From a plasmid, in the NCBI RefSeq assembly GCF_053078305.1, contig NZ_CP166875.1: a stretch of DNA of 64,000 nt; one strand, given 5' to 3'. A program made the translations under genes and the position numbers. Under the pieces are notes generated by a model that worked only from the letters and a program-made list of their open reading frames with translations, had not been told where the DNA came from and searched no databases. Shown piece after piece: positions 34,411 through 54,949 of this stretch (position 1 is its first letter; the number at the start of each line of letters is the position of its first letter).

Positions 34411-34417
34411 TAAAAAC

Positions 34418-35973: not shown

Positions 35974-36060
35974 TGATATTTCTGTGGCTATTGAGTTCTC
36001 ATTGAAATGCGATATTTAAAAGTATGAAGCATATTACATTATTAACTTATTTCTCTGTTA

Positions 36061-36459
36061 ATGAAAGGTGAACAAATGAACTATCAGGCAGTATCAGAAT
36101 TAATCACATCGTCTAATCATAATGTTCTTATTGTGGGGGACTCAGCTTCTGAAGTTGATAGCTTTTTAAATAAACTGAATATTACTGATTATAAGTATTA
36201 TGATTTCAGCCAGATTTACAGTTGTTCTGACAGAACATTAAATGATTATGCGGTTATTTTTATCAGGGATGCACTGAACGCCAGTGAGCATATTATTATT
36301 TTTAATTGTACAGGATGGCCTGATTTGAATAATGAATCTGCCGTCATGCAGTTTGCCAGAGTGGCACGAAAATCAGGAAAACAACTGATAGTCGCAGTAA
36401 GAGAACAGGATATGAAAAAAATGGAAGCAGAGTTTGGAAGGATCATAAAAATCCACTGA
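36061..36459 (+). CDS. hypothetical protein with alternating strand/helix pattern
   Basis: 132 aa AT-rich ORF; followed immediately by second copy of structured element. Confidence 0.4.
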   Translation: MKGEQMNYQAVSELITSSNHNVLIVGDSASEVDSFLNKLNITDYKYYDFSQIYSCSDRTLNDYAVIFIRDALNASEHIIIFNCTGWPDLNNESAVMQFARVARKSGKQLIVAVREQDMKKMEAEFGRIIKIH

Positions 36460-36530
36460 CGCCTTCGCGTTGCTCAGTTGTCCAACCCCGGGGACGGGAA
36501 AAAGCAAGTTTTCCCCGCCCCCGGCGTTTC
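36456..36530 (+). repeat. conserved ~72-bp structured element (copy 2)
   Basis: same flanks as 24178-24249 with a different but self-complementary stem. Confidence 0.6.
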
Positions 36531-36681
36531 TGTAGTGAAAAGCGGGAAATGGAGGGAATGGTCAGTAACAGGGAATGTGGTATTATCGCGGCGGGTGTCT
36601 GAGCCTTTCTGGTTCAGGCAAGACGCAGGTACTAGAAATGCGAAGACCCCACTTGTTAATCCATTAACTCGTGAGGCCTGC

Positions 36682-36888
36682 ATGAAGTACTTGAACACTA
36701 CTGATTGTAGCCTCTTCCTTGCAGAGAGGTCAAAGTTTATGACGAAATATGCCCTTATCGGGTTGCTCGCCGTGTGCGCCACGGTGTTGTGTTTTTCACT
36801 GATATTCAGGGAACGGTTATGTGAGCTGAATATTCACAGGGGAAATACAGTGGTGCAGGTAACTCTGGCCTACGAAGCACGGAAGTAA
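36682..36888 (+). CDS. srnB: SrnB/PndA-type Hok-family type I toxin
   Basis: MKYLNTTDCSLFLAERSKFMTKYALIGLLAVCATVLCFSLIFRERLCELNIHRGNTVVQVTLAYEARK matches remembered SrnB. Confidence 0.8.
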   Translation: MKYLNTTDCSLFLAERSKFMTKYALIGLLAVCATVLCFSLIFRERLCELNIHRGNTVVQVTLAYEARK

Positions 36889-37171
36889 GCTGCCGGGCGG
36901 GGACGGAAGTCCCCGCTTTCCGGAAGTGTGAGGTATTTCAGGGGCAGACACCCGACATGCCAGAAACCGCCGGTCCCGCCCGGGGCCGGCACACAGGTTA
37001 AGGCATTTCCTGTTTTTCAGCCATTTCGCAACAAAAATCACATTAAACAACAGTAATCACCGTTGATTTGTGCGCCAACACAGATCTTCGTCACAATTCT
37101 CAAGTCGCTGATTTCAAAAAACTGTAGTATCCTCTGCGAAACGATCCCTGTTTGAGAATTGAGGAGGCGAG

Positions 37172-37432
37172 ATGTCGCAGACAGAAAATGCAGTGACTTC
37201 CTCATTGAGTCAAAAGCGGTTTGTGCGCAGAGGTAAGCCTATGACTGACTCTGAGAAACAAATGGCCGCTGTTGCAAGAAAACGTCTTACACACAAAGAG
37301 ATAAAAGTTTTTGTCAAAAATCCTCTGAAAGATCTCATGGTTGAGTACTGCGAGAGAGAGGGGATAACACAGGCTCAGTTCGTTGAGAAAATCATCAAAG
37401 ATGAACTGCAGAGACTGGATATACTAAAGTAA
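37172..37432 (+). CDS. copB: CopB (RepA2) transcriptional repressor of repA
   Basis: 86 aa, matches IncFII CopB; position upstream of copA/repA1. Confidence 0.85.
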
Positions 37433-37494
37433 AGACTTTACTTTGTGGCGTAGCATGCTAGATTACTGATCGTTTAAGGAATTTTGTGGCTGGC

Positions 37495-37585
37495 CACGCC
37501 ATAAGGTGGCAGGGAACTGGTTCTGATGTGGATGTACAGGAGCCAGAAAAGTGAAAACCCCGATAATCTTCTTTAACTTTGGCGA
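37495..37585 (-). ncRNA. copA: CopA antisense RNA (approximate bounds)
   Basis: region between copB and tap matches remembered R100 copA target sequence; bounds estimated. Confidence 0.55.
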
Positions 37586-37656
37586 GTGAGAAAGATTACC
37601 GGGGCCATCTAAAAACCGTATAGCCAACAATTCAGCTATGCGGGGAGTATAGTTAT

Positions 37657-37731
37657 ATGCCCGGAAAAGTTCAAGACTTCTTTCTGTGCTCGCTCCTTCT
37701 GCGCATTGTAAGTGCAGGATGGTGTGACTGA
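37657..37731 (+). CDS. tap: Tap (RepA6) leader peptide
   Basis: 24-codon [27 protein letters not shown] ending just after repA1 GTG start. Confidence 0.6.
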
Positions 37732-38581
37732 TCTTCAACAAACGTATTACCGCCAGGTAAAGAACCCGAATCCGGTGTTTACACCCCGTAAAGGTGCCGG
37801 AACGCTGAAGTTCTGCGAAAAACTGATGGAAAAGGCGGTGGGCTTCACCTCCCGTTTTGATTTCGCCATTCATGTGGCGCATGCCCGTTCGCGTGGTCTG
37901 CGTCGACGCATGCCACCGGTGCTGCGTCGACGGGCTATTGATGCGCTGCTGCAGGGGCTGTGTTTCCATTATGACCCGCTGGCCAACCGCGTCCAGTGTT
38001 CCATTACCACACTGGCCATTGAGTGCGGACTGGCGACAGAGTCCGGTGCAGGAAAACTCTCCATCACCCGGGCCACCCGGGCCCTGACGTTCCTGTCAGA
38101 GCTGGGACTGATTACCTACCAGACGGAATATGATCCGCTTATCGGGTGCTACATTCCGACCGATATCACGTTCACACCGGCGCTGTTTGCCGCCCTTGAT
38201 GTGTCTGAGGATGCAGTGGCAGCTGCGCGCCGCAGCCGTGTGGTATGGGAAAACAGACAGCGCAAAAAGCAGGGGCTGGATACCCTGGGTATGGATGAGC
38301 TGATAGCGAAAGCCTGGCGTTTTGTCCGTGAGCGTTTCCGCAGTTACCAGACAGAGCTTAAGTCCCACGGCATGAAACGTGCCCGTGCGCGCCGCGATGC
38401 AGGCAGAACCCGCCAGGACATTGTCACCCTGGTGAAACGGCAGCTGACGCGTGAAATCGCGGAAGGGCGTTTCCGGGGAAGCCTGGAGGCCGTGAAGCGC
38501 GAAATCGACCGTCGTGTGAAGGAACGCATGATAATGTCGCGTAACAACAACTACACACGGCTGGCCACTGCCTCCCCCTGA
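37724..38581 (+). CDS. repA1: RepA1 IncFII replication initiator (GTG start)
   Basis: [22 protein letters not shown]... near-identical to remembered R100 RepA1. Confidence 0.9.
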
Positions 38582-38599
38582 GTTTTACCTCATCTGAAT

Positions 38600-38900
38600 A
38601 ATCCGGCCTGCGCCGGAGGCATCTGCACGCCTGAAGCCTGTCAGCGAACAAAAAAACAGCACCACATACAAAAAACAATCTCATCATCCCGCTTCTGGTG
38701 CATCCGGCCCCCCTGTTTTCGATACAAAACATGCCTCACTGACGGGGAATTTTGCTTATCCACATTTAACTGCAAGGGACTTCCCCATAAAGTTACAACC
38801 GTTCATGTCATAAAGCGCCAGCCGCCAGCCTTACAGGGTGCAATGTATCTTTTAAACACCTGTTTATATCTCCTTTAAACCACTTAACTACATTCATTTA
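38600..38900. promoter_or_regulatory. oriR-type origin region with DnaA box TTATCCACA at 38756-38764
   Basis: DnaA box and AT-rich stretch downstream of repA1 as in R1/R100. Confidence 0.6.
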
Positions 38901-39157
38901 AAAAGAAAACCTATTCACTGCCTGTCCTGTGGACAGACAGATATGCACCTCCCACCGCAAGCGGCGGGCCCCGACCGGAGCCACTTTAGTTACAACACTC
39001 AGATACAACCACCAGAAAAACCCAAGTCCCGCGCAGAACTGAAACCACAAAGCCCCTCCTCATAACTGAAAAGCGGCCCCGCCCCGGCCCAAAGGGCCGG
39101 AACAGAGTCGCTTTTAATTATGAATGTTGTAACTATACTCCATCATTGCTGTCAGTA

Positions 39158-39427
39158 TTCTGGCTGGAAGTCCTCAGTACACGCTCGTAAGCGGCCCTCA
39201 CGGCCCGCTAACGCGGAGATACGCCCCGACTTCGGGTAAACCCTCGTCGGGACCACTCCGACCGCGCACATAAGCTCTATCATAGCTGACAGCGGGTATG
39301 GCTTTGCAGGGTGGGGATGGGTAAGGTGAAATCTATCAATCAGTACCGGCTTACGCCGGGCTTCGGCGGTTTTACTCCGGTATCACATGTAACCACAGCG
39401 TGCCGCCTTACATGCGCTGACGCGCAT
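39158..39427. repeat. 270-bp GC-rich structured segment, copy A (IncFII ori-downstream type)
   Basis: ~90% identical direct repeat of 41040-41310. Confidence 0.7.
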
Positions 39428-39516
39428 AAACAACAAGTTGCTACATTAGCTTACAGGTTAATTCACCTTGCATAAGATTAGCATATAGGTTAATGTTTAT
39501 CGAAATGGGAGGTCAT

Positions 39517-39846
39517 ATGTTTAGCGTTGTTTATCACCCGGAAGCCAGGGAAGAAGCCACAGCATTACCCATAAAAATCAGGGTGAAGTTTGACCGTCTC
39601 ATCAGCAAACTGGAATATGACGCCCGATTACTGCGGGAACCGGATACAAAGCCCCTGGGGGATGGACTTTTTGAGATCCGCACGATGGGGACGGACATAG
39701 CCAGAGGCATCTGGGTATACCACAAAGGCAATACCATCATCATGCTCCGGGTTTTCATCAAGAAGTCTCAGAAAACGCCAGCAAAAGAAATCGATCTCGC
39801 CAAAAAGCGGTTAGCGGAGGTACTTAATGAAACTGGTAAGCCATAA
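39517..39846 (+). CDS. HigB/RelE-family toxin
   Basis: toxin-first order followed by overlapping HTH gene. Confidence 0.65.
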   Translation: MFSVVYHPEAREEATALPIKIRVKFDRLISKLEYDARLLREPDTKPLGDGLFEIRTMGTDIARGIWVYHKGNTIIMLRVFIKKSQKTPAKEIDLAKKRLAEVLNETGKP

Positions 39847-40108
39847 AGAACTGCATAACGAGTGGATGCAGGACGACGAATATCGCGCTGCATGGCAGGA
39901 AGAAGAACGTAAGGAGAAACTCAGGGAGTTGCTTGCAGAATGGCGTAAGCATGACAATTTGACAAAAGCGCAGGTTGCTGAACGCATGGGGGTTACTCCT
40001 CCTGTTATTTCCCGCCTGGAAAACAACATCACTAAAGCCAGCATCGACACCCTGACTCGCTATGCCCATGCGTGCGGTATCAAAAAACCTGTTATTACGC
40101 TGTACTGA
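39827..40108 (+). CDS. HigA-like HTH-XRE antitoxin
   Basis: 93 aa, HTH motif LTKAQVAERMGVTPPVISRLEN. Confidence 0.65.
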   Translation: MKLVSHKELHNEWMQDDEYRAAWQEEERKEKLRELLAEWRKHDNLTKAQVAERMGVTPPVISRLENNITKASIDTLTRYAHACGIKKPVITLY

Positions 40109-40296
40109 ACTCTGCTCTATGGCTGCCAGTTCTGGAGAAATCAGTAACTAAATTTTAATTAGCTACGTTATGGTAAATCTGCCTGATGTGTCGATTTCTC
40201 TGAAAGTAATTCGGCTTCTGTGGGCTGCGTTTGCCTTGTGCCACCTGAATGTAATCACTATGATTAAATATGATTAACAACTAATCGGATATACAA

Positions 40297-40575
40297 ATGA
40301 AAAACAATACCGCACAGGCAACAAAAGTAATTACCGCGCATGTGCCATTACCTATGGCTGATAAAGTCGACCAGATGGCCGCCAGACTGGAACGCTCCCG
40401 GGGCTGGGTTATCAAACAGGCACTTTCTGCATGGCTTGCCCAGGAGGAGGAGCGTAATCGCCTGACGCTGGAAGCCCTGGACGATGTGATATCCGGACAG
40501 ATTATCGACCATCAGGCTGTACAGGCCTGGGCAGACAGCCTCAGTACTGACAATCCGTTACCGGTTCCACGCTGA
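40297..40575 (+). CDS. ribbon-helix-helix antitoxin (ParD/CopG-like)
   Basis: 92 aa upstream of and coupled to ParE-like ORF. Confidence 0.6.
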   Translation: MKNNTAQATKVITAHVPLPMADKVDQMAARLERSRGWVIKQALSAWLAQEEERNRLTLEALDDVISGQIIDHQAVQAWADSLSTDNPLPVPR

Positions 40576-40850
40576 TGGAACTGAAGTGGACCAGTAAGGC
40601 GCTTTCTGATTTGGCGCGGTTATATGATTTTCTGGTGCTGGCCAGTAAACCTGCCGCCGCCAGAATGGTACAGTCCCTGATACAGGCACCGGTCATTCTG
40701 TTAACTCATCCACGTATGGGAGAACAGTTGTTTCAGTTTGAACCCAGGGAGGTCAGACGGATTTTTGCTGGCGAGTACGAAATCCGTTACGAACTTAATG
40801 GGCTGCGTTTGGGAAACGTACAATATTGTACGGTTGCGCTATTGCGGTAG
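40575..40850 (+). CDS. ParE/RelE-family toxin
   Basis: 91 aa, ATGA overlap with antitoxin. Confidence 0.6.
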   Translation: MELKWTSKALSDLARLYDFLVLASKPAAARMVQSLIQAPVILLTHPRMGEQLFQFEPREVRRIFAGEYEIRYELNGLRLGNVQYCTVALLR

Positions 40851-41039
40851 GGTGTACTCCAACGCTATACGGTATTTGGCAGACCTTTAGGGACATGAGA
40901 TAACCTAAATGCAATAAGAGAAAAGCAATAACTTAAAGGCGATAGCTGATCACGATGAATCAATCAGTTACTTATCCGCATCGATTAAAAAATGCTCCTA
41001 ACGTACAATAATTCCGTTTCCCAAACCGACCCCTCAGTG

Positions 41040-41310
41040 TTCTGGCTGGAAGTCCTCAGTACACGCTCGTAAGCGGCCCTGACGGCCCGCTAACGCGGAG
41101 ATACGCCCCGACTTCGGGTAAACCCTCGTCGGGACCACTCCGACCGCGCACAGAAGCTCTCTCATGGCTGAAAGCGGGTATGGCTTAACAGGGTGGGAAT
41201 GGGATAGGCGAAATCTATCAATCAGTACCGGCTTACGCCGGGCTTCGGCGGTTTTACTCCGGTATCACATGTAACCACAGCGTACCGCCTTCCATGCCGC
41301 TGGCGCGGCA
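41040..41310. repeat. 270-bp GC-rich structured segment, copy B
   Basis: direct repeat of 39158-39427. Confidence 0.7.
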
Positions 41311-41385
41311 TATCATGGTGACGATATCTGAATCGTTATATACTGTGTATATACGTGGTAATGACGAGGTGATAAATGGCACAGG

Positions 41386-41469
41386 TTAATATGAGTTTAA
41401 GAATCGACGCTGAACTGAAGGATGCTTTTATGGGGTCAGCCTGGAATTCGGAAAATAAACCACGTTAAG
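41386..41469 (+). pseudogene. truncated RHH antitoxin remnant (MAQVNMSLRIDAELKDAF...)
   Basis: 27-codon ORF with RelB/ParD-like N-terminus, no toxin partner. Confidence 0.4.
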
Positions 41470-41640
41470 ACTATTTTTTAGCCAAATGACTGTCAGGAAT
41501 CCGGACGGTCGGAACATTTCGTACAGCCTTTACGTTCAGTGAGTTAGCTGGCCTGGATGTAACCACTCGTTCAACTCAATTCTCTTAGCGTGGGAAAATT
41601 TCCGTTTTCCAAGCGGACCCCTAGAAGAAGGGAAGCGATA

Positions 41641-42057
41641 TCAAGCCCAGGGATTAATAATTGATACTCCGGTTAATTCAAAATCACCAACATTTCTGGT
41701 TACAACCGTCATCCCATGTACCAGCGCCGTTGCTGCGATCAATGCGTCTCGTTCACTGCGCCTGTCGGGAACATGTAAACGAGAACAACGTAATGCAACC
41801 GCAGTATCTACAGGAAGTATCTTATCAGAAAACGCTGGTAACACATGCTGATCCATCCAAGAACGTAGCATAATCCCTTGTCGCATATCTCGACGTTCAA
41901 CTTGTAATATTCCCTGTTCAAGTTCCATTATGGAAATAACAGAAATAAAGAAATCTGCCGCATCTGTATGCAATACCCATTTTGCAACATTATTATCTAT
42001 ACGTCCTGTCCGAGCCTTCCGTAGCTCAGAGATAACATTAGTATCAAGAATATACAC
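41641..42057 (-). CDS. vagD: VapC/VagD PIN-domain toxin
   Basis: 138 aa, MYILDTNVISE PIN motif. Confidence 0.85.
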   Translation of the reverse strand: MYILDTNVISELRKARTGRIDNNVAKWVLHTDAADFFISVISIMELEQGILQVERRDMRQGIMLRSWMDQHVLPAFSDKILPVDTAVALRCSRLHVPDRRSERDALIAATALVHGMTVVTRNVGDFELTGVSIINPWA

Positions 42058-42311
42058 TATAAAAACTCCGCAGGTTTTAAACTAACCGTAATACGAGGCG
42101 GTTCAAATTCAACTGCATCAGCATCGGGCATCGCCAGAATGTCAATGAGAGTTCGTCGTTGTTGCGTCAATTTTCGGTATTCTTCGATACTAAGAAGTAC
42201 ATGTGCGGTTTTACCCCGATCAGTAATAAATACTGGACCATAATTCGTGGCGCGTTTGGCTCGAGTTACATCTTGATTAAGTTCCCGACTGGATAGGGTT
42301 GTAATCTTCAT
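42057..42311 (-). CDS. vagC: VapB/VagC antitoxin
   Basis: MKITTLSSRELNQDV..., overlaps toxin start. Confidence 0.8.
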   Translation of the reverse strand: MKITTLSSRELNQDVTRAKRATNYGPVFITDRGKTAHVLLSIEEYRKLTQQRRTLIDILAMPDADAVEFEPPRITVSLKPAEFL

Positions 42312-42424
42312 GCTGTTGCCTTTTGATGTATATAGGTACGTTACTACATTGTAGGGCATGAAATAGTACAATGCAAGAAATGTACTTGATTAGGGGTAGT
42401 CTTCGCCGCTTGTTGCTGTCAGAT

Positions 42425-42458
42425 ATTAATGCTAATGTATGCATACATTAGCATTAAT
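42425..42458. promoter_or_regulatory. 34-bp perfect palindrome ATTAATGCTAATGTATGCATACATTAGCATTAAT
   Basis: perfect dyad in divergent intergenic region. Confidence 0.45.
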
Positions 42459-42470
42459 GAGGGATGATAT

Positions 42471-42884
42471 GTGAGAGACAAAACCAGGGAGGCCATGCGG
42501 TTTTTTTTAGGCGGCAGGTGTTACACGGCTGAAAACCTTGAAAAGGATTATCTGGCTGAAGTTGCTAATTACAGTGACGACCGCTGGGAAGCACCCCAAC
42601 GCGCCGCACGTCTGGCAGCTGCCGTAAAGCGTTACAAGACATCAGAAATGCTGCGCTTTATTTTTGCTACCACTGCCTACGATCCCGATCCAGATTTAAC
42701 CCCGCTGACTGTGAGACGTTTGTGCAAGGCATTGTTCGGCAGAACAGGAAGCCAGTGGCTGGTTGTTGAAGTTTTTGGGGAGAAGGGGCGTCAGCACCGC
42801 AGCGCGGACAGCAATCCGGAGATGGTGGAAAAAGGGGGTTCGCGCCCATTTCCTCTAAAAGTCTCACCTTGCTTAGGTAATTAA
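42471..42884 (+). pseudogene. hypothetical ORF whose 3' end runs into the Tn3-family left IR
   Basis: ORF C-terminus encoded by IR sequence at 42834-42884. Confidence 0.35.
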
Positions 42885-42890
42885 TTGAAT

Positions 42891-43472
42891 TTATTTATAA
42901 AACGTTGCAATTTTAGCATCATTTTTTATTGTTCTTTTTAACCTGAAGTACGTCGATCGAGAGATACCTGTTTTTTCTGTCACACTGCCCAGAGATTCTC
43001 CCTGTGATATAAGCTCCAACGCTGTAGGCGTTCGTGGATGCTTCTTCCTGCCAAATTTTACGCCTGCGGCAAGTGCCGCTATTCTTCCGTCGTTTGTCCG
43101 CTCCAGAATACGCTCACGTTCCGCTTCAGCTACAGCAGCAAGGATTTGGATAACCATTTTGCCCATTGTCCCTTCTGTACTGAGACCGTTCTCCAGGAAC
43201 CGGATGGCGATCCCCTTTTTGTAACAGCTATCAACCACACGAATCATGTCAGCAGTGTTACGCCCCAGTCGGTCCATTTTTGTACAGATGATTACGTCGT
43301 CTTTCTCTGCACGGGCCAACAACCGCTGTAGTCCTTCCCGTTCATCAGTTGCGCCAGTCATCATATCCGTAAAAATACGATCTTCCCGTACCCCGGCATT
43401 TTTTAGCTCCGAGATTTGATGTGTTAGCTTCTGATGACTGGTTGATACCCGTGCATACCCCAATAACGCCAT
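42891..43472 (-). CDS. tnpR: serine-recombinase resolvase TnpR
   Basis: MALLGYARVSTSHQ catalytic Ser motif, C-terminal HTH. Confidence 0.85.
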   Translation of the reverse strand: MALLGYARVSTSHQKLTHQISELKNAGVREDRIFTDMMTGATDEREGLQRLLARAEKDDVIICTKMDRLGRNTADMIRVVDSCYKKGIAIRFLENGLSTEGTMGKMVIQILAAVAEAERERILERTNDGRIAALAAGVKFGRKKHPRTPTALELISQGESLGSVTEKTGISRSTYFRLKRTIKNDAKIATFYK

Positions 43473-43484
43473 TTTTAGTCTCAC

Positions 43485-43628
43485 TTATCGTTTTTGACAC
43501 TGCATGGTATCATAATGTACAAAATACGATTTTTGAAACCTGCTTTTATGCTGTTTTAGACAGGTATCAGATATCTTAATATTTGATACTAGCCATATTT
43601 AACAAATATTTAGCATTTTGGTAAATGT
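43485..43628. promoter_or_regulatory. res site region between tnpR and tnpA
   Basis: divergent intergenic region with TGTC..GACA-type dyads. Confidence 0.5.
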
Positions 43629-46600
43629 ATGCAGAAGTACAAGAAAAGAATTAGTATATTAACAAAAAGTGAAATAAATGAATTATATCAAGTCCCCTCT
43701 TTTAATCCTGTTGAAAGGGATGAGTTTTTTTCGCTGGATATCAGCCTTAAAAGAGAAATTGATAAAATAATAAATATAGAAAGCAGGGTGTATCTGATAT
43801 TAATAACAGGGTATTTCAGATATAAACCTGTGATTCCTGAATTTACATTAAAAGACGTAAAAAGGGATGTGAAATATATTATCCAGACATATTATAAAAA
43901 CGAAAGTACTAATCTCAATTTAAACATACCTAAAAGTACAAAGTACCGCCTTGTTAAACGAATGCTTTCTACTCTAGGATTTGAACAACTCACCCCATCT
44001 ATAAAAAATGAGTTAAGTGAACGTCTGAATGATGTTGCTACTATATGTATGGAACCAAAATATATTTTTGATGAATTACTTGCTTTTTTAGGACAGCGGC
44101 GTATAGCTCTTCCTGGATACAGTACTGTCCAGAACCTCGTTTCAGATGCTTTAAACTTTGAAAGGAAAAGGACAATTAATATTTTGTCAAAGAGAATTTA
44201 TCCTGCCACTGCACAAAAGATTACATCCATCATCCATGATGATGGAATATTAAATTCCATCAGGGGATATAATTATAGCACGAGAGACTTCTCAGCATCA
44301 GAAATAGAAAATGAATTAAGAACTCACAATGTGATAAGTAGTATTTACTATGAAATAAAAGATATAATTAATTCATTAGGTATATCCCAGGGAAACATGG
44401 AGTACTATGCAACTATCGTAAAACACAGTACAACATTCAGACTTAAGCGACACCCTAAATGGCAAGGAATACTTTATTTGTGCTGCTACTTGTACTTCAG
44501 ATACAGAGAGATAAATGATAAAATAATCACAGCCTTCAGATATTTAGTAAAAAAACATAAAGACGCTTCAGTTTTGTTTGCAAAAGCTCGGGCAACAGAG
44601 GAAATAGATCTAATAAATAAAAAGCTTAAGTTTGCGAGTAAAATATTTAACTTCTTCGTTGATAGTAACATTGAAGACAGCATCCCTTTTGGATATGTTC
44701 GTGAAAAGGTTTTTTCACTTATATCGAAAGATGATATGCATCTTGTGAGTGAATTTTTTGACAAAAATAAAATCGATGTAATTGAATATCAATGGCAGTA
44801 TATTGACAGCCATCACCTTAAGATCGCCAATTCAATCCGAAAGCTTTTTCTGGCTATAGATATAGTATATGACAACGAGAAGTCTGTTATTGGCCAGCAA
44901 ATTACTGCTGCCAAGGATGATCTCAGAGGAAAAGGAAAGCTGGATGCTAAGGATCTGAGGGTAATTCATCCATCCGAGAAAAATTACATTGTAAAAGAAG
45001 GAGAAATTAACACTCAACGATTCGAATTTCATATGTACAGCAGGGTATCTAACCATCTGGAAAACGGTGTCTTTTATGCTGCGGAGAGTGAACAAAACAA
45101 GAGACTGGAAGATGATCTCATAGAACGAAGTTACTGGCATAAGAATAAATCGATTTTGATAGAGAAAACAGGCCTTGAACGACTTATCACACCAATAACG
45201 CAGACTCTTAATGAGCTGGAGAATACCTTTAGCGATAAACTGGCTCGTATAACCATTGGAATAAACTCAGATGCTAATGAGTTTGTGAAAAAACAACCAC
45301 ACTCCAACAGATTACAGTGGAGTCTGGCCAGTAAAAAATGGAAGACCAGCATCGATAATCCGATTTACAATCAGATAAAAAATATCGGAATAGTTGACGT
45401 AATGAAGTATGTAAACAATGAGACGAATTTTTTGTCTGTGTTTAATGCCATATCATCCAGGAAAAATAATCTTGAAGCTGACTATAATGACCTTCTTGCC
45501 TGTATATTTGGTAATGGCGCAAATTATGGTGTTCACAGAATGGCATCTGCATCAGACCGTAGTATTGGAATACTACGTGATGTGAATGACAAATTCATTC
45601 GTCCAGAAACAACAGGAATGGCCAACACAGTAATATCTGATGCAATTGCAAATCTTTCTGTATATAAATACTGGACGATAAATGAAGATTCTCCATTTGG
45701 AAGTGTTGATGGGCAGAAGCACACTTGCAGAATAAATACATTTAAAGCCCGTTATTCTGCCAAGTATTTCAGAAAGGGGAAAGGGGTTTCTGCGATGACA
45801 CTGGTATCTAATCATGTGCCATTATCAACTGTGGTAATTTCTCCAAATGAATATGAAGGTCATTTTGCATTTGACTTGTTATATAACAACACCAGTGAAA
45901 TACAACCAAAGTCATTAGCGACTGACAATCATGGTATAAACAACGTTAATTTTGCGATTCTTGACATTTTTGGCTATCAGTTTTCACCACGTTATGCAAA
46001 ATTCAAGAAAATATTTAATGAATTATTTGATGTTATACTGGAGAGTGATAAACTCATTATAAAACTTAAAAAACAATTTAACTTTAAGCTCATTGAACAT
46101 GAATGGGAAAACATCCAACATATTATTTGTTCTTTAAGCAGAAAAACAACCATTCAAAGTACGGTTGTTAAGAAGTTATCTAATACAAAGCGTAGCAACA
46201 AGACATTAGCAGCACTTCGGGAGTATGACCGAGTTATAAAATGCATATATGTCCTGGATTATGCTGACAATAAAACCTTAAGGCAATTTGTGCAACAAGC
46301 ACTGAACAGAGGTGAAGCTTATCATCAACTAAGAAGAGCAATAGCATCAGTAAATGGAAATCAATTTCGCGGTGGTAATGACTACCAAATAGATCAATGG
46401 AACGACTGTGCGAGGTTAATAGCTAATTGTGTAATCTATTATAATTCAGCAATATTATCCAGGCTGGTCGAGAAATTTGAAAAAGAAAATAATAAAAAAG
46501 CGATAGATGTTCTGGCTAACTTATCCCCAGTAGCATGGAGACACATTCTCCTTGGAGGGAATTATTCTTTTGAAGATCAAGTTGCGATCACAAATTTGGA

Positions 46601-46667
46601 CAGTCTTTTGGAGGGAGTAGACCCACTAAGTGATATCGGAGATATTGAGTCCGAATATGACGGTTAA
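43629..46667 (+). CDS. tnpA: Tn3-family transposase TnpA
   Basis: 1012 aa, AT-rich, typical size for the family. Confidence 0.9.
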   Translation: MQKYKKRISILTKSEINELYQVPSFNPVERDEFFSLDISLKREIDKIINIESRVYLILITGYFRYKPVIPEFTLKDVKRDVKYIIQTYYKNESTNLNLNIPKSTKYRLVKRMLSTLGFEQLTPSIKNELSERLNDVATICMEPKYIFDELLAFLGQRRIALPGYSTVQNLVSDALNFERKRTINILSKRIYPATAQKITSIIHDDGILNSIRGYNYSTRDFSASEIENELRTHNVISSIYYEIKDIINSLGISQGNMEYYATIVKHSTTFRLKRHPKWQGILYLCCYLYFRYREINDKIITAFRYLVKKHKDASVLFAKARATEEIDLINKKLKFASKIFNFFVDSNIEDSIPFGYVREKVFSLISKDDMHLVSEFFDKNKIDVIEYQWQYIDSHHLKIANSIRKLFLAIDIVYDNEKSVIGQQITAAKDDLRGKGKLDAKDLRVIHPSEKNYIVKEGEINTQRFEFHMYSRVSNHLENGVFYAAESEQNKRLEDDLIERSYWHKNKSILIEKTGLERLITPITQTLNELENTFSDKLARITIGINSDANEFVKKQPHSNRLQWSLASKKWKTSIDNPIYNQIKNIGIVDVMKYVNNETNFLSVFNAISSRKNNLEADYNDLLACIFGNGANYGVHRMASASDRSIGILRDVNDKFIRPETTGMANTVISDAIANLSVYKYWTINEDSPFGSVDGQKHTCRINTFKARYSAKYFRKGKGVSAMTLVSNHVPLSTVVISPNEYEGHFAFDLLYNNTSEIQPKSLATDNHGINNVNFAILDIFGYQFSPRYAKFKKIFNELFDVILESDKLIIKLKKQFNFKLIEHEWENIQHIICSLSRKTTIQSTVVKKLSNTKRSNKTLAALREYDRVIKCIYVLDYADNKTLRQFVQQALNRGEAYHQLRRAIASVNGNQFRGGNDYQIDQWNDCARLIANCVIYYNSAILSRLVEKFEKENNKKAIDVLANLSPVAWRHILLGGNYSFEDQVAITNLDSLLEGVDPLSDIGDIESEYDG

Positions 46668-46733
46668 CAACATGATAAATAATGGTTTTTATGCTAAGAG
46701 TGAGACTTTTGGAGGAAATGGGCGCAGAACCCC

Positions 46734-46957
46734 TGTATCTGCCGTTCGGTTTTTGCACGAAGTTTTTCTGAGCTTTTACCGAACTGCATACGTTGCAGTT
46801 TCGCAACCAGCGCCTTCAGCCGGTTGATTTCGGAAGCATAAGCCGCCACCCGCTGTGAGAGCAGGCGGTTGTATTCAGCCATCTGGCGGATGGTGTCCTG
46901 TTGCGTCTGCAACAGTGCCCGCAGGCGGGCGTTCTCATGAGCAAGTGAGGTGTCCAT
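46734..46957 (-). pseudogene. IS66-family TnpC N-terminal fragment truncated by Tn3-family insertion
   Basis: leucine-zipper N-terminus MDTSLAHENARLRALL...; ORF ends at Tn IR. Confidence 0.7.
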
Positions 46958-46976
46958 ATCCTCACTTTACAACGGG

Positions 46977-47324
46977 TTATATGCGGATTCCAGCGCGTTC
47001 CGTTCGTTTCGGGTGCTTCCAGTTGATACCTTCAAGAAGCATGGATAACTGAGCCGGAGTAAGGTGCACCTTGCCGTCACGGGTGACTGGCCAGACGAAG
47101 CGGCCCCGCTCCAGGCGTTTGGTGAAGAGGCACAGTCCGTCACTGTCAGCCCACAACACTTTTATCTGGTCACCCCGGCGTCCGCGGAAGATGAACAGGT
47201 GTCCGGAGAACGGGTCATCCTTCAGGACGTTCTGAACTTTTGATGCCAGGCCGTTAAAGCCATTTCGCATATCGGTGATACCTGCAACCAGCCAGATACG
47301 CGAACCTGCAGGGAGAGATATCAT
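46977..47324 (-). CDS. IS66-family TnpB (orf2)
   Basis: 115 aa, typical IS66 orf2 size and sequence. Confidence 0.8.
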   Translation of the reverse strand: MISLPAGSRIWLVAGITDMRNGFNGLASKVQNVLKDDPFSGHLFIFRGRRGDQIKVLWADSDGLCLFTKRLERGRFVWPVTRDGKVHLTPAQLSMLLEGINWKHPKRTERAGIRI

Positions 47325-48001
47325 CAGTGGCTGCTCCCTTTTATTTCGCGGATAAGTGTCTGTAATAACGCCGGCGTCAGTTTACCTTTAAGCCTGAGAG
47401 TTCCGGCCGGCAGAACCAGCTCACAACACAGACTGTCGGACGGTGTATTTATCTGCTCTGGTTCCTGTGCGGGGGCCGGGATTTTATTATCCGGCTCCGG
47501 CGTTAACGTCACGGGAAGCAGTGCCGGCATATTTTTTCCGGAAGGCAGCAGGCCACCTTTCCGGTATTGATGGCGCCAGTTGAAGAGCAGGTTATCGTTG
47601 ATTCCGTTTTCCCGGGCGATCTGCGCCACACAGGCTCCGGGCTGCAGTGACTGCTCCACTAAGGCGATTTTAAACTCATAAGGGAAGTTGGGCCGCCGGG
47701 GACGTTTTTTTACCACGGGGGCTTCGGATATAACGGTGCTTTCAGGACGTACGACTGGTACCGTGGAAAATTGTCCGTAAAGGCAGGCATCAAGTTCCTG
47801 CTCCGACATGCCTGCGGGCAAAGGCCACGAAAGGCCAGCTCTCCGAAAGCGCACGAACATACTACAAACTGTTGATTTTGGTACACCCAGGCGACGCCCG
47901 GCCACAACCCGGGGTAAATGTTCTTCAAAGTGAAGACGTAAAGCTTCAGTGATCCAGGTCCGGTGTTTCATACGATAGTGTCCATTAAAAATGATGGACA
48001 T
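47324..48001 (-). CDS. IS66-family TnpA (orf1)
   Basis: contains KRPRRPNFPYEFKIALVEQSL...LLFNWRHQYR HTH region; start uncertain. Confidence 0.7.
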   Translation of the reverse strand: MSIIFNGHYRMKHRTWITEALRLHFEEHLPRVVAGRRLGVPKSTVCSMFVRFRRAGLSWPLPAGMSEQELDACLYGQFSTVPVVRPESTVISEAPVVKKRPRRPNFPYEFKIALVEQSLQPGACVAQIARENGINDNLLFNWRHQYRKGGLLPSGKNMPALLPVTLTPEPDNKIPAPAQEPEQINTPSDSLCCELVLPAGTLRLKGKLTPALLQTLIREIKGSSH

Positions 48002-48329
48002 TATTTTTGTAGAGCCGGAGGAAACAGACCAGACGGTTTAAATGAGCCGGTTACAAACAAATTCGCTTCATAAATTTCATAGTGCAGACCACATCCCCAA
48101 TGAGCCTGCTTTTCCAGCCTGCTGATCACCACATCAGCCCGGATAACATCAAAGGGATTGCGGGAATGAATATTACGAATAAAGCCATCGGTACGTGCTG
48201 CTGACATATTTCTGCCCATCTTTAATACACCTCTGTTTTTTGCCCCCATCATCTGTTGAGTTTCGGGAGCCGCGGTTTTGACGTTTTGCGGGGACCTGCC
48301 TTTTGTTCCCTCCGGTATTCACCATCACC

Positions 48330-48720
48330 TGTTTGAGAACCTTCGCCGCAAGGGGCATCACTGCCACGGCCGGAAACGACTGTCCGGGGGCAGACCGCAA
48401 AAGTTTTTGCCTGCTTTTGGGCAAAAAGTTTTGCGGGATGTGCATTTCACCCCTGGACTGGCGGAGACGGTTGTGGCTGTCTTTGCCCCCGGCGACAGGG
48501 GCTTAAACAGGTGTATGGCACCGGACACAACAACGGGCAGGGACCCGCCGCAACGACGAAGAGCGCGTGCGCGAAACGGCGTTGCCCCTTACATCCCGGC
48601 GGCCTTTTGCCGGGATGCCAGGAGCGCAGGCCACGGCGCGACAGAGGCGGCGCGACCGGAACGGTCGCTGCAAGCCCGGGGTTTCGCGTCAGGGATGGAA
48701 GCCCGCCAGGGCGGAGACAG
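48330..48720. promoter_or_regulatory. GC-rich hairpin repeat, copy 1 (candidate Frpo/ssi-type single-strand element)
   Basis: homologous to 53740-54010; core GAGCGCAGGCCACGGCGCGACA.AGGCGGCGCGACCG...CGGTCGCTGCAAGCCCGG. Confidence 0.5.
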
Positions 48721-49078
48721 CTTCGCTGGCTCCGTTCACGACAGCCCGCCCCGCCTGGGGGACGCCCGGAAAAGGCATAAGCAGGAGAACAACAAAACAG
48801 ACAATAATCAGGGCAGCAGTAATCAGAGTCAGAACAGGAGGAAAAAGAGAATAATCAAAGGGAAGGTGATGTGATTTCCGACAGGTCATAAACAGAGAAG
48901 GCGGGGGAAAAGAACGGGCGCCGCAGGCGCGCGTTCATCCCCGTTCCCGGAGGGAATCGGCCTTCCTGGCAGTCTGGTTGTTCATGCTGCTGCAATGTCA
49001 GCAAGGAGAAAGGGGCCACCGGCGAACCAGCAGCCCCTTTATAAAGGCGCTTCAGTGCAGTCAGACCAGCATCAGCCC

Positions 49079-49104
49079 TGAAAAGGCGGGCCTGCGCCCG
49101 CCTC
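49079..49104 (-). terminator. rho-independent terminator of hok transcript
   Basis: GGCGGGCGCAGGCCCGCC hairpin followed by T-tract on - strand. Confidence 0.6.
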
Positions 49105-49111
49105 CAGGTTG

Positions 49112-49270
49112 CTACTTACCGGATTCGTAAGCCATGAAAGCCGCCACCTCCCTGTATCCGTCTCTGTAACGAATCTCGCACAGCGATTTTCGTGTCAGAT
49201 AAGTAAATATCAACAGTGTGAGACACACAATCAACACACACCAGACAAGAGAGCTGCGTGGTAGTTTCAT
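49112..49270 (-). CDS. hok: Hok host-killing type I toxin; overlapping mok frame extends to 49411
   Basis: [52 protein letters not shown]. Confidence 0.85.
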
Positions 49271-49544
49271 GGCCTTCTTCTCCTTGCGCAAAGCGCGGTA
49301 AGAGGCTATCCTGATGTTGTCAGACATATGGGATGCCTCGTGGGTTAATGAAAAATTAACTACGGGGCTATCTTCTTTCTGCCACACAACACGGTAACAA
49401 ACCACCTTCACGTCATGAGGCAGAAAGCCTCAAGCGCCGGGCACATCATAGCCCATATACCTGCACGCTGACCACACTCACTTTTCCTGAAAATAACCCG
49501 CTCATTCAGGCTGTTTACGGGTAATCTGTGTGATTGTTGCCGCA

Positions 49545-50264
49545 TCACGCCGCCTCCCGGAGTTTGTTCGGCACCATCCACCGCTCCATCTCACGGACAG
49601 CGTGACCCGCCTCCCTTGCTGCCATACCTGCCTCTGCGATGACCTGCCAGAATGGCATATCCTGCCACTGCCAGCGTTCCATCCCGGCCAGTGACGGAAA
49701 ACGCTCACCCCACTGCCAGAACAGGGTTTCCAGGTCATGCTCTGCCACCCGGTCACTCCAGCGTGCATACCAGCTTCCGACTGTTTCCGGTGAATGGAAC
49801 GCCAGTTCGATTTCAGCCTGAGCGACCAGCGTCTGGTACGCACGGGCTTTCTGCTCTGCCTCCCGTGCCTGCTGGCGGCTGTACTTCTGCATGACCAGCA
49901 CGGATTTATGGCGACTGCGTTCCCTGACACGGAACCGCACCGACGGGAACAACCGCTCTGCTGCATCACCGGGAAGGGGAAGGAGGCAGACCTCGCCCTG
50001 TGTTTCAATCAGCACATCGACGGCATACAGCCACTGAGAACGGTTGCCGCGCAGTTCTTCTGCGGTCAGGGACGGCATGAAAAATCGCAGGTCAGACAGC
50101 GAAATCCTGCGGCTTCCGTTCAGACAGCGGAAAAACGCCCCCGCATACGGATATTCCGCCAGCGTGTTACCCTGGTGGCGGCGTTTTTCTGTCTCCGCCA
50201 CCGCCCGCCATGCGGCCTGTTGCTCTGTGCTGAGAGGAACCAGTGCCTGTGAACGTGCGCTCAT
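49545..50264 (-). CDS. psiA: PsiA plasmid SOS-inhibition protein
   Basis: 239 aa matching remembered F PsiA. Confidence 0.9.
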
Positions 50265-50695
50265 GCCTGACCTCCTTCCGCCATCAGGATATGGATGATG
50301 TCACTGACGCTGTATCCCTGTTCATCCAGTGATGCCGCCAGTGCCAGTGAATGGCTGACAGCTTCCGGTGCAAACCGCCGCTGCACCTGAACCACCGCAA
50401 ACGGCTCACCACCGGCATTCACCAGAACCAGCACCCAGACCTGAGAGACATCGCCCGGTGAACATAACGCCAGGTGAAAACGTTCGTGGGCAGGCGTGAA
50501 ACGGACCTGGACGGGGAAAAAGCCGCCGAACTCGCTGCCGTACTCGCCATTCATCGTCCAGTTGTCCGGCGCATCCAGTTCCCGCATCACGGCGTGTGTC
50601 AGCTCACGGCGTTCATCACTTCCGGCAGCCCGGATATCTTCATATTCCTGTGCGCTCATGGTCTGTAATACATTCAGGGTCAGTTCAGTTTTCAT
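50261..50695 (-). CDS. psiB: PsiB RecA inhibitor
   Basis: [66 protein letters not shown] matches F PsiB. Confidence 0.9.
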
Positions 50696-50749
50696 CACGG
50701 TATCTCCCTTGCTGCCGCCCCGTCTCCGGCGGGGCGGTGTGGTTGTTCA

Positions 50750-52708
50750 TCAGGCGGCATCAGCCAGGTTATCGGCGCGTTCAGTGGCATCCGTCTGTGG
50801 ACGTGGTGAACCCATCCAGCCAGGCACCCAGCGGTTGTCTTTCATGTGGAACTCTGCATGTTCAGCGGCATCGCCTTTCTTCATCTTCTCCGCGTCCCGT
50901 GCGGCACCGGACAGTCCGGCATCATTCAGGGCATCGATAATCTGCGGCTTTTTCAGGTGACCGAAGAAGTTTGCTTTTGTCGGCTGCCACCAGTCACGCA
51001 TGTGAAAGCCGATGGCGCTCTCCAGCGAGTCCAGCGGACTGCGTGACGTGTGACCATACTCGCGGGTCTGAACGCCGTGGATGCTGCACGCGGTGCAGAA
51101 ACTGAGCAGTGATAACAGCACGTCCTGGCTGAGTGACAGGAACGTCGTCATGTCCCGTGCCCATCCCTCCGGTAACAGGGCAGCAAGACGGGCTTTTTCT
51201 GCCATCATCGCCATGAATGCGGCACCGTCCTTCCCCGATGGCGCATCGCTGGTCAGCGAATAATGTTTACATTCCAGGCTGATTTGTGCTGGTTTACTGT
51301 ACGCTCCGCTGCCAAACACATTCAGGCAGAGCGTCCATGCCAGCAGTGCCAGAGATTTGTCCGGTTGCTGCATGAGTGCCGCCTGGACTGCCAGCGTGCG
51401 TTCGGAAGACATTTTCGTCAGCAGTGGCAGACTGATTTCCTCCACTGACGCTTTCTCCTGCACCTGTTCCGTGCGGTCAGCGTCGTCAGTCACGTCATCT
51501 TCACTGCGCAACTGCACACCACGCTGGACACACACATTACCGTAACGCCAGGACACCACCACGCCACTTCCGGCACGCATCTCCGGCGTCCACGCCCTGA
51601 CCTTCGCCATGCAGTCAATCAGCTTCATTTCTGCTGCCAGCAGGTCAGATTCCTCACACTGGTTTTCCAGCGCGTCGTAACGCATCATCAGTTCGTTCAG
51701 GCGTTCTTCTTCTGCCTCCGTCAGCACCGCTTCCGGCTCCGGCAGGTTGCGGTATGCCCGGGAATCTTCACGGCACTCACCGACAGGCTCCATGCGTCCG
51801 GCGCACCATTCCCAGCCTTCGGCTTCCCGAAGGTGTTCAGCGACAGCCTGGAGTTTTTCCAGCAGGGCGGCATCGAGCGCCACGCAGTCCACATAGCCAC
51901 CCTCGTCATCGCTGAACAAATCAGTACGCAGTTCGTCAGGTGAGAAAGCATCAGCCCCCACGAAGCGGAATTTAGTGTTGTCCTTCACCGCCACTTCACT
52001 TTCCGTAATCAGATTGCGGATAACCCGCACATCCGGTTTACCGCCCCATCCTGACTGGCAGGCCGCTTCAAACACCTGCACCTGACGCGCGGTGTCGTTC
52101 TCCAGCGCCAGCGCCTGACAGTGCTCGGTGGTGATGCGGTCTTCTGCCAGCGCATCGAGGATGACAGGCGCAAGGTCTGCCAGTTTCAGCATTCGCTGAA
52201 CGTGGCGGGGCGAATAACCCAGCAAATCACCGATTTGTGCAGGTGTTTTGCCTTCCTGCGCCATTGCACGGAATCCGGCAATCTGTTCGGCAGGGTGCAT
52301 ATCCCGACGATGACCGTTCTCGGTCATCGATGCGGCAGTCGCCAGCTCCTGCGGAATGACCTTCACACGGACAGGCCAGTCAACCTGAATGATGTCACGC
52401 TCTGCCAGCATGTTGAGTGCTGCCAGTCGGCGACCACCTGCGGCGACACCGTAACGGTCACCTGGCAGGGCATGAACAACCAGATTCTGTAACAGGCCGA
52501 CACCTTTAATGGAGTCCGCCAGTTCGCTGACGGACTCCGCAGAATACGGCACCGTGCGCACATTCAGCGGAGACTTAATCAGCGAGGCCAGCGGCACGCT
52601 CACTTCCTCCGTCTGCGCCAGCAGGGCCGACAGGACTGTTTCCTGCGTTTTTGCAGGTTTACGGCTGGATTTACGCTCCGTTTTTGCCTTAGACTCTGTA
52701 ACTGACAT
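50750..52708 (-). CDS. ParB-like nuclease domain protein of leading region
   Basis: ~652 aa with N-terminal ParB/Srx fold motif; position between ssb and psiB as in F. Confidence 0.8.
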   Translation of the reverse strand: MSVTESKAKTERKSSRKPAKTQETVLSALLAQTEEVSVPLASLIKSPLNVRTVPYSAESVSELADSIKGVGLLQNLVVHALPGDRYGVAAGGRRLAALNMLAERDIIQVDWPVRVKVIPQELATAASMTENGHRRDMHPAEQIAGFRAMAQEGKTPAQIGDLLGYSPRHVQRMLKLADLAPVILDALAEDRITTEHCQALALENDTARQVQVFEAACQSGWGGKPDVRVIRNLITESEVAVKDNTKFRFVGADAFSPDELRTDLFSDDEGGYVDCVALDAALLEKLQAVAEHLREAEGWEWCAGRMEPVGECREDSRAYRNLPEPEAVLTEAEEERLNELMMRYDALENQCEESDLLAAEMKLIDCMAKVRAWTPEMRAGSGVVVSWRYGNVCVQRGVQLRSEDDVTDDADRTEQVQEKASVEEISLPLLTKMSSERTLAVQAALMQQPDKSLALLAWTLCLNVFGSGAYSKPAQISLECKHYSLTSDAPSGKDGAAFMAMMAEKARLAALLPEGWARDMTTFLSLSQDVLLSLLSFCTACSIHGVQTREYGHTSRSPLDSLESAIGFHMRDWWQPTKANFFGHLKKPQIIDALNDAGLSGAARDAEKMKKGDAAEHAEFHMKDNRWVPGWMGSPRPQTDATERADNLADAA

Positions 52709-52773
52709 AGTTAGTACCTCCCAAAACGGTAATAATGATTGTCTGCCGGACGCGTTCCCGTCCGGCACCTCTC

Positions 52774-53049
<276 letters not shown>

Positions 53050-53064
53050 TCACAGTCAGGCCAG

Positions 53065-53592
53065 TCAGAACGGGATATCGTCTGAAAATCCGTAATCCTC
53101 CCCCTCCGGCGGCTGAGGCTGAGGCTCGGGCTGCGCGGCCTTACGTCCACGGCCTTTCGTTTTCGCGCCACTTTTTTTCGTCGCGTCAGCACTCTGTGGC
53201 TGCCCATTCTGCTGAGGCTGCGGTTGTGCCTGAGCGTTCTGCTGTGGTGCAATCCCCAGCATCTGCATGGTGCCCGTGGTCTTAACAAGAATTTCAGTGA
53301 CGTAACGGGTGATACCGTTATCTTCCCAGCTACGGGTTCGGAGTTGCCCCTCGATATAGACCTGCGCGCCCTTGCGCAGATATTCACCAGCCACTTCCGC
53401 GAGCTTGCCGAACAGCACCACGCGGTGCCATTCCGTCTGCTCCCGCATCTCCCCCGTCTTTTTGTCGCGCCAGCTTTCTGATGTGGCCACCTGCAGGTTT
53501 GCCACTGCGCCCCCGTTGGGGATGTAACGGACCTCCGGATCATTGCCCAGACGCCCGACGAGGATGACCTTGTTGATACCACGTGCACTCAT
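53065..53592 (-). CDS. ssb: plasmid single-stranded DNA-binding protein
   Basis: [25 protein letters not shown]-fold; acidic C-terminal tail DDIPF. Confidence 0.9.
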
Positions 53593-54903: not shown

Positions 54904-54949
54904 GTTCTCGTCTCCTTTACAGGGGCGGCATTGCCGCCCCGTCCGTTAA

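Follow-up and report, generated by a model that had tools for sequence, protein, structure and literature searches.

A cargo-free Tn3-family transposon without a target-site duplication joins plasmid sequences of unrelated origin

We analysed a 64,000-nucleotide stretch of a plasmid (NCBI RefSeq assembly GCF_053078305.1, contig NZ_CP166875.1), hereafter the window, which carries at positions 42834-46733 a compact Tn3-family transposon consisting of left and right terminal inverted repeats (IRL and IRR), the resolvase gene tnpR, a putative recombination site (res) and the transposase gene tnpA. The transposon has no target-site duplication, and the sequences on its two sides come from unrelated genes, each interrupted. 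Comparison with other copies suggests that these flanks arose through at least two events, with a probability of about 0.72: an insertion into tnpC of the insertion sequence (IS) ISCro1, and a later breakpoint at or inside the transposon that replaced the sequence to the left of IRL. The right junction is shared with another assembly and the left junction is variable; the order of the two events and the type of the second are inferred.

Anatomy of the transposon and its ends

The element and its immediate flanks comprise the following features.

42834..46733, + strand: Tn3-family transposon, IRL-tnpR-res-tnpA-IRR; complete, 3,900 bp, no passenger genes
42834..42871, + strand: IRL, left terminal inverted repeat, sequence GGGGGTTCGCGCCCATTTCCTCTAAAAGTCTCACCTTG
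46696..46733, - strand: IRR, right terminal inverted repeat
42891..43472, - strand: tnpR, serine resolvase of 193 amino acids; Pfam Resolvase; catalytic Ser10 (YARVSTSHQ)
43473..43628, no strand: putative res site, the divergent spacer between tnpR and tnpA; 156 bp, 28% G+C
43564..43589, no strand: putative res subsite I (crossover site), GTATCAGATAT-CTTA-ATATTTGATAC
43629..46667, + strand: tnpA, Tn3-family DDE transposase of 1012 amino acids, uninterrupted
42471..42833, + strand: left flank, codons 1-121 of a 155-codon hypothetical open reading frame (ORF)
46734..48054, - strand: right flank, ISCro1 (IS66 family) remnant

An earlier note on this DNA had described a compact, cargo-free Tn3-family transposon with inverted repeats of about 40 bp and a composition richer in A+T than the plasmid, and this description held. 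A 40-nucleotide inverted pair at 42828-42867 and 46700-46739 is 85% complementary; the terminal repeats are about 38 bp long and begin with GGGG, as is typical of the Tn3 family (GGGGG at the outer left end, GGGG at the right). Gapped alignment of IRL with IRR yielded a core of 34-35 bp with one mismatch and one or two indels; the core sequence GCGCCCATTTCCTCYAAAAGTCYCAC occurs exactly twice in the window, against zero occurrences expected from shuffled sequence, and in an 87%-identical relative (L007; comparison loci carry L numbers) the 38-bp pair is perfect. Because only about 20-30 bp separate the genes from the inverted repeats on both sides, the element has no room for cargo. Its G+C content is 36.3% (tnpA 34.5%, tnpR 46.7%), compared with 50.9% for the whole window. 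The window contains only these two inverted repeats and no second copy of the transposon. A scan of GTDB representative genomes gave 0 matches to the exact IRR and one match, in Serratia, to the degenerate core.

We then compared the window copy with 17 other full-length copies, seven from PLSDB and ten from public assemblies encoding an identical transposase. Nine of them are bounded by perfect 5-bp duplications (AACAT, TATTA, TTATT, GAATA, TATCT, AGATA, TATTT, TTATT and GTATA), located at exactly the equivalents of 42834 and 46733, and one copy, L018, has a 6-bp duplication, AAAAGA (2200-2205 and 6106-6111). Among these ten, L007 is the 87% relative mentioned above; the other nine are near-identical to the window copy. 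Since the perfect duplications abut exactly these termini, the ends of the element are fixed at 42834 and 46733. In the window, the flanking pentamers are AAAAA (42829-42833) on the left, read one base off as AAAAG in the earlier note, and TGTAT (46734-46738) on the right, and no shift of either end produced matching repeats. The 5-bp duplication expected for the family is thus seen in other copies of this element and is missing from the window copy, as had been claimed. Duplications are likewise missing from other copies (8 of 18 in independent records, the window copy included), and all four copies with chromosomal-looking neighbour genes carry them. Between the window copy and each of the ten from public assemblies there are no more than 2 differences in 3,900 bp, which points to recent activity, and the element is intact and probably still active.

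The two flanks derive from unrelated, interrupted genes

To the left, the transposon cuts the hypothetical ORF, which lies about 4.2 kb downstream of RepFII repA, at codon 121 of 155. The junction reads ..GGTGGAAAAA|GGGGG, and the resulting chimeric ORF continues into IRL up to 42884. The uninterrupted ORF, that is, the empty site ..GGTGGAAAAA|ATGGCTGCC.., was found in L008-L010 and L041. The last of these shows the same upstream order, with RepFII repA, two toxin-antitoxin pairs, PIN/Phd and an intact 155-amino-acid ORF, at 98.75% identity. The ORF product had no match in Pfam or NCBIfam.

To the right, the junction ..CCCC|TGTATCTGCC lies within ISCro1, whose tnpC is cut after codon 75. The remnant retains tnpA (47324-48001), tnpB (46977-47324), the first 75 codons of tnpC (46734-46957) and the terminus ..GGTTAC at 48054, and matches the Pfam families HTH_Tnp_1, TnpB_IS66 and LZ_Tnp_IS66. 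Positions 46732-48054 are 99.8-100% identical at the DNA level to elements annotated as ISCro1, and intact ISCro1 is present in L011, L026 and L027. The lost part of tnpC corresponds to the continuation ..GTGCTTCC and the 3' part ..ATACAGGAAGCACAGG. The earlier note had suggested looking for this part elsewhere on the replicon; it is absent from the window, as is the 3' part of the hypothetical ORF. The reading that one end lies in an IS66 tnpC and the other in an unrelated ORF, and that the present junctions do not represent one simple insertion, was therefore confirmed, the flanks being parts of unrelated genes that are each interrupted.

The orientation of the surrounding genes further constrains the possible histories. 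In all 16 of the 16 loci that carry the TraB or PsiA allele of the window, the genes ssb-parB-psiB-psiA-hok..DUF932-SLT-traM..traB are co-oriented and contiguous. Three of the 16 are 99.8-99.97% identical to window 1-11.8 kb, and their psiA-parB block matches 49539-51455 in reverse. In the window itself, tra/finO/repA on the + strand and ISCro1'-hok-psiA-psiB-parB-ssb on the - strand converge on the transposon, and ISCro1 has kept the portion that would have been lost if a canonical F plasmid had undergone a deletion. Together, the convergent orientation and this retained portion exclude such a simple deletion; the observed order can be accounted for by an inversion or by the joining of two distinct backbones. 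The closest relatives of the two sides differ: the left side is 97-98% identical to IncF plasmids of Shiga toxin-producing E. coli (STEC), and the right side about 94% identical to IncK2/Z-type plasmids. It is possible that the right-hand segment did not originate as the leading region of this plasmid.

A shared right junction and a variable left junction

The order of events is suggested by contig JPQG01000008.1 of assembly GCA_000736735.1. This contig is identical to window 42834-62708 (0 mismatches in 19,875 bp) and to window 50172-64000 (0 mismatches in 13,829 bp), and its identity to the window ends precisely with the outermost base of IRL. What follows there is A+T-rich sequence and then genes of the ProQ/FinO family and for a UvrD helicase; the transposon in this contig is flanked by ATATT and TGTAT, again without a duplication. 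The same ProQ/UvrD region is uninterrupted in IncK2/Z plasmids, for example 2.7 kb downstream of repA in pJNE170426-2, and its orientation fits a transposon-adjacent deletion of an IncK2/Z backbone. Given that identity runs through the IRR junction and ends at IRL, the two assemblies have the right junction in common and differ at the left one. The junction between IRR and ISCro1 is thus probably the older one, and the left junction is probably secondary and later.

The left junction has one other record. An exact-protein look-up of the 137-amino-acid chimeric ORF that spans it returned the draft assembly GCA_026420205.1, in which one contig matches window 32472-42944 at 99.8% identity and terminates 111 bp into the element, and a second contig matches window 56257-64000 with a single mismatch. 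The contig break just inside the element suggests that this genome has at least two copies. The same look-up gave no record for the 87-amino-acid chimeric ORF at the right junction. For the 436-amino-acid, 5'-truncated TnpC expected at the reciprocal junction, in two allelic forms, it returned only frameshifted, IS1-cut or otherwise interrupted ISCro1, none adjoining the transposon.

Several observations weigh against the two-event history. The order of events rests on one comparison, and the left flank of JPQG01000008.1, which has no duplication, is itself derived. Neither window junction had a record in PLSDB or in the RefSeq complete E. coli genomes, and the reciprocal junctions (IRR next to AAAAA and the ORF 3' part; IRL next to the tnpC 3' part) and a second copy were not found. 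With tnpR and the putative res both intact, a cointegrate is unlikely to have persisted unresolved for long. In addition, the right segment resembles IncK/Z backbones as much as F backbones, which weakens the argument for an inverted F leading region, and an inversion is therefore not preferred over fusion or exchange.

Proposed history and alternative routes

In the standard model of the Tn3 family, TnpA acts on ends of about 38 bp to form a cointegrate with a 5-bp target duplication, which TnpR then resolves at res. By analogy, TnpA of the present element would act on its ~38-bp ends in replicative transposition, with a 5-bp staggered cut and a cointegrate, and TnpR would resolve the cointegrate at res and probably repress the divergent promoters. 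In the first step of the proposed history, the element would have inserted into ISCro1 tnpC and created the IRR junction ..CCCC|TGTATCTGCC. In the second, a later event with a breakpoint at or within the transposon would have placed the 5' part of the hypothetical ORF to the left of IRL. This could have happened if transposase moved the IRL end to a new target on the same molecule, with an adjacent deletion or inversion as the outcome, or if two copies recombined, homologously or at res, and swapped flanks between an F-type plasmid and an ISCro1-bearing segment. Tn3-type resolvases act only on directly repeated res sites, inverted sites not being substrates. With TnpR and the putative res intact, a direct-repeat cointegrate would be short-lived; single-copy and inverted-copy products would be stable. 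Three routes lead to the same local picture: transposition in cis (adjacent deletion, one copy), transposition in trans (inversion, two inverted copies) and recombination between copies. Adjacent deletions that remove duplications, inversions and flank exchange by recombination at Tn5403 have been described for the Tn3 family (He et al. 2016, PMC5142620), so all three routes have precedents.

A single intramolecular replicative transposition of a resident copy is a real possibility, to which we give slightly less than an even chance. It would produce an adjacent deletion in cis, or an inversion with a second, inverted copy outside the window in trans. Both junctions lie exactly at the termini of the inverted repeats, and both flanking pentamers are A+T-rich, like real target duplications of this element (for example AACAT, TATTA, GAATA and TATCT). 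The convergence of the tra/rep and leading-region genes would fit an inversion relative to the plasmids with the 99.8-99.97% identical tra region, the inverted-copy product would escape resolution and be stable, and such events are among the published precedents. Tn3-family target immunity, however, disfavours intramolecular events, and a deletion from the canonical F layout is ruled out by gene orientation. An inversion, for its part, predicts that another copy lies inverted outside the window, some 7 kb upstream of its first position, and recombination between two independent insertions would give the same final structure.

Flank exchange or replicon fusion appears somewhat doubtful as the second event. 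Here, a copy in the F-plasmid ORF would have met the copy beside ISCro1 on a different replicon or segment, through a homologous crossover in the element and a second one in shared backbone, or through cointegration. The identity of the window and GCA_000736735.1 up to the IRL terminus, with unrelated sequence beyond it, speaks for this route, as does the finding that the left and right parts of the window are each most similar to another type of plasmid. A cointegrate formed by transposition into the ORF predicts exactly the observed order of ORF 5' part, AAAAA, IRL to IRR and ISCro1. By contrast, a simple insertion at this ORF site was not found in the collections searched, intact TnpR and the putative res should resolve a direct-repeat cointegrate, and no second copy is visible. 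Exchange by homologous recombination has been documented for Tn5403 (PMC5142620).

An assembly chimera is improbable. In this case, a genome with at least two identical copies, for example a simple insertion in the ORF and a ProQ-transposon-ISCro1 arrangement, would have been misjoined across the 3.9-kb repeat. The element is indeed multi-copy in many genomes: 100% identical copies reside on two plasmids of FHI_NMBU_11 (pFHI_NMBU_11_01 and pFHI_NMBU_11_03), and RM9973 has three places matching the element, spread over two plasmids. The identical TnpA protein is listed in 594 blocks of a public assembly index, of which about half (290 of 594) hold it only on element-sized contigs of 2-5 kb. Moreover, in draft GCA_026420205.1 the contig that carries the window's left junction comes to an end 111 bp into the element, in GCA_000736735.1 the left flank is another one although element and right flank are identical, and the window alone links this left flank to this right flank. 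Set against this, the 137-amino-acid chimeric ORF is not on record for GCA_000736735.1, so that the two configurations seem to come from different isolates; copies with hybrid flanks are common, given the 8 of 18 without duplications; and a misjoin would have had to merge two plasmids into one contiguous record of more than 64 kb.

Finally, a simple insertion whose 5-bp duplication has since mutated can be dismissed: nothing except the A+T-rich flanks favours it, the outer sequences belong to different genes that are each interrupted, and the continuations of the ORF (ATGGCTGCC..) and of tnpC (..GTGCTTCC) are absent from the opposite ends and from the whole window.

The history that we favour, an insertion into ISCro1 tnpC followed by a later breakpoint at the left end, accommodates either intramolecular transposition or exchange as its second event. 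The earlier note had attributed the junctions to a transposon-mediated deletion or inversion; a rearrangement at the transposon is supported, and the specific cause is less narrowly defined, as exchange between copies or a misjoin could produce the same junctions. Such a rearrangement is ordinary plasmid reshuffling and leaves Tn3-family biology unchallenged.

Relationship to known elements

Its transposase, its terminal repeats and the 5-bp duplications of other copies place the element in the Tn3 family, of which it is apparently, and provisionally, an unnamed member. The label given to its TnpA by the Prokaryotic Genome Annotation Pipeline (PGAP) is only 'Tn3 family transposase', and in the literature searched, an incomplete collection, the element had no name and neither its inverted-repeat sequence nor its protein accessions were cited.

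The comparison with Tn5403, a cryptic element of Klebsiella plasmids to which the earlier note had pointed, was supported by architecture and not by sequence. Both elements have the order inverted repeat, leftward tnpR, res (putative in the window element), rightward tnpA and inverted repeat, without passengers, with similar sizes (about 3.66 kb in L077, the annotated Tn5403 used for this comparison, versus 3.90 kb) and GGGG termini, and Tn5403 is known from plasmid reshuffling (PMC5142620). However, TnpA identity is 23% over 418 amino acids and confined to the C-terminal DDE domain (E 3e-27), TnpR identity is 28%, the inverted repeats are dissimilar except for GGGG and a CTWAG motif, and Tn5403 is GC-rich, by inspection of its ends, in comparison with 36% for the window element. 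The element therefore shares the cargo-free layout of about 3.7-3.9 kb with the Tn5403 group and lacks close sequence kinship with it.

Among named elements, the closest TnpA is of the IS3000 / Tn3000 type, with a full-length alignment (residues 4-1002) at 33.5% identity. Outside the element's own group, relatives of TnpA in PLSDB comprised an unnamed one on a Photobacterium damselae plasmid (53.5%), followed by IS3000 (33.5%), Tn4401 (29%) and TnAs1/TnAs3 (about 21%). Tn3 and gamma-delta (Tn1000) resemble the window element in TnpR along its full length (49% identity to gamma-delta), in Ser10, in the divergent arrangement of tnpR and tnpA around res and in the expected 5-bp duplication. Compared with gamma-delta, the window element is much shorter, has no extra genes and encodes a remote TnpA, and its res subsites are predicted. 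Residues 450-983 of TnpA match the transposase of Tn4430 (PDB 7QD4/7QD8, E about 5e-37; 6e-37 for 7QD4), which is a distant sequence relation only. Tn4430 uses a tyrosine recombinase (TnpI/IRS) instead of a serine resolvase. In terms of rearrangement, Tn3-family copies that lack one or both duplications in resistance plasmids (PMC5142620) bear the same signature as the window copy; those cases, unlike the present one, were reconstructed from complete plasmid series.

Transposase, resolvase and the putative res site

TnpA comprises a DUF4158 domain and the Pfam domain DDE_Tnp_Tn3 (E 5e-117), and scores 605 bits against the NCBIfam model transpos_Tn3 (cut-off 500). A QLxxLR-like motif for binding the DnaN clamp was sought in TnpA and not found. 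TnpR matches Pfam Resolvase (E 5e-38). Its alignment to 1GDT, the gamma-delta resolvase, covers the whole protein (E 3e-51), at the identity given above and with Ser10 conserved.

We infer that the spacer at 43473-43628 contains res, on the basis of its Tn3/gamma-delta layout, its position, a 26-bp inverted repeat and a break in homology. The repeat, GTATCAGATAT-CTTA-ATATTTGATAC at 43564-43589, is the sole strong inverted repeat of the spacer. Just past it, homology stops with tnpR-res modules that lack tnpA (88% identity, Hafnia and Serratia plasmids), and the break in G+C content between tnpR (47%) and tnpA (34%) falls in the same spacer. The end of homology after site I and the jump in G+C content therefore suggest that the element is a hybrid of two modules joined at the res site; both are consistent with an exchange of modules in or close to res. 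Hexamers resembling a tnpA promoter overlap site I, and those for tnpR lie upstream of it, positions that hint at a gamma-delta-like autoregulation; such hexamers are no commoner in the spacer than in shuffled sequence.

IRL-tnpR-res alone (element nucleotides 8-757, about 88% identity), without tnpA, was also observed on small plasmids of Hafnia, Serratia, Citrobacter and E. coli; this module adjoins an IncFII-like repA in L048 (5008-5758).

Location near IncFII-family replicons

Plasmid copies cluster within about 1.3-4.5 kb of an IncFII-family repA, which holds for the window, L001, L004, L016, L018 and L019 and for the ProQ site in the IncK2/Z reference. Duplications are absent from most of these repA-adjacent copies; the sample is small and non-random. 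Three junctions fall in one 468-bp hypothetical ORF: that of the window at 42833, that of L022, 16 bp further in a 95%-identical allele of the ORF and in the same orientation, and that of L001, at the window equivalent of 42570 and through IRR. A preference for origin- or terminus-proximal regions has been described for Tn3-family members (PMC11417375). It is conceivable, although we regard it as unlikely, that this unnamed lineage, with a TnpA at most 34% identical to named elements and without a QLxxLR-type motif, strongly prefers the first few kb downstream of IncFII-family replication genes, often leaves junctions without duplications and recurrently fuses F-type and I-complex backbones, the window copy being one such fusion point.

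The junction marks a point of recombination between an F-type tra/RepFII segment and a segment with ISCro1, leading-region genes, umuDC, stb, colicin Ia and RepFIB. It is a useful marker for reconstructing the history of this multi-replicon plasmid, and it is also a spot prone to assembly error. The element is widespread, multi-copy and apparently active, and yet is annotated generically; naming it, and recognizing its IncFII-adjacent habit, would aid plasmid annotation.

Variant copies of the element

In GCA_001902685.1 (L017:1928-6105), a full copy is directly preceded by 277 bp of its own left end (IRL and the tnpR 3' end), reflecting either insertion into another copy or rearrangement with one, despite the expected target immunity. 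Plasmid p266917_2_01 (L049:3007-3636) carries a 630-bp deleted derivative, in which element nucleotides 1-593 are joined to the last 42 nucleotides. This derivative, whose internal structure was read in L049 only, keeps both inverted repeats, has lost the tnpR N-terminus and is flanked by AAGAT and ATAAT without a duplication; it resembles a Tn3-derived miniature element (TIME). A junction query matched 780 E. coli genome records, many of them at the left end of the element on pAA-type plasmids, including O104:H4 pAA, at about 97%.

Observations in the flanking segments

IncK plasmids carrying ISCro1 were considered as examples of the same insertion site and rejected, as the match was a joined artefact with the IS located elsewhere. 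In the F plasmids L026 and L027, ISCro1 lies 54-268 bp off the ISCro1 site of the window. The 8 bp beside the ISCro1 terminus in the window (48055-48062, AAACAAAT) nearly equal the 8-bp duplication at an unrelated ISCro1 insertion in the IncK plasmid L011 (4321-4328, AAACAAAC), a likeness that may reflect target preference or chance.

Further to the right, the segment continues in L050 with an integrase, a DUF6404 gene, a microcin, colicin Ia and a Rep3-type (FIB-like) replicon. Another Tn3-family element, encoding a 988-amino-acid TnpA and a 207-amino-acid HTH_7 resolvase, was seen in two assemblies (L051:11449-15054 and L017:1-1030). It abuts the window equivalent of 67707, about 3.7 kb past the right end of the window; in the plasmid whose sequence matches the window exactly, this position is free of it.

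On the left side, we rejected a derivation of the window from pFHI_NMBU_11_01 by one inversion, as IRR and not IRL abuts the ORF there, and at another position. The hypothetical ORF is closely preceded, at 42425-42458, by the perfect 34-bp palindrome ATTAATGCTAATGTATGCATACATTAGCATTAAT, and intact loci have a second copy just downstream of the ORF (L008:7126-7159 and 7667-7701). With palindromes at both sides, the ORF resembles a cassette some 600 bp long; more than 1,000 PLSDB records match it. Downstream of repA, two repeat copies of about 260-400 bp, about 90% identical to each other, occur at 39170-39428 and 41034-41433, one just ahead of the toxin-antitoxin modules and the other between the RelB/ParE and PIN/Phd pairs, and the transposon junctions of L004 and L005 lie within homologues of this repeat.

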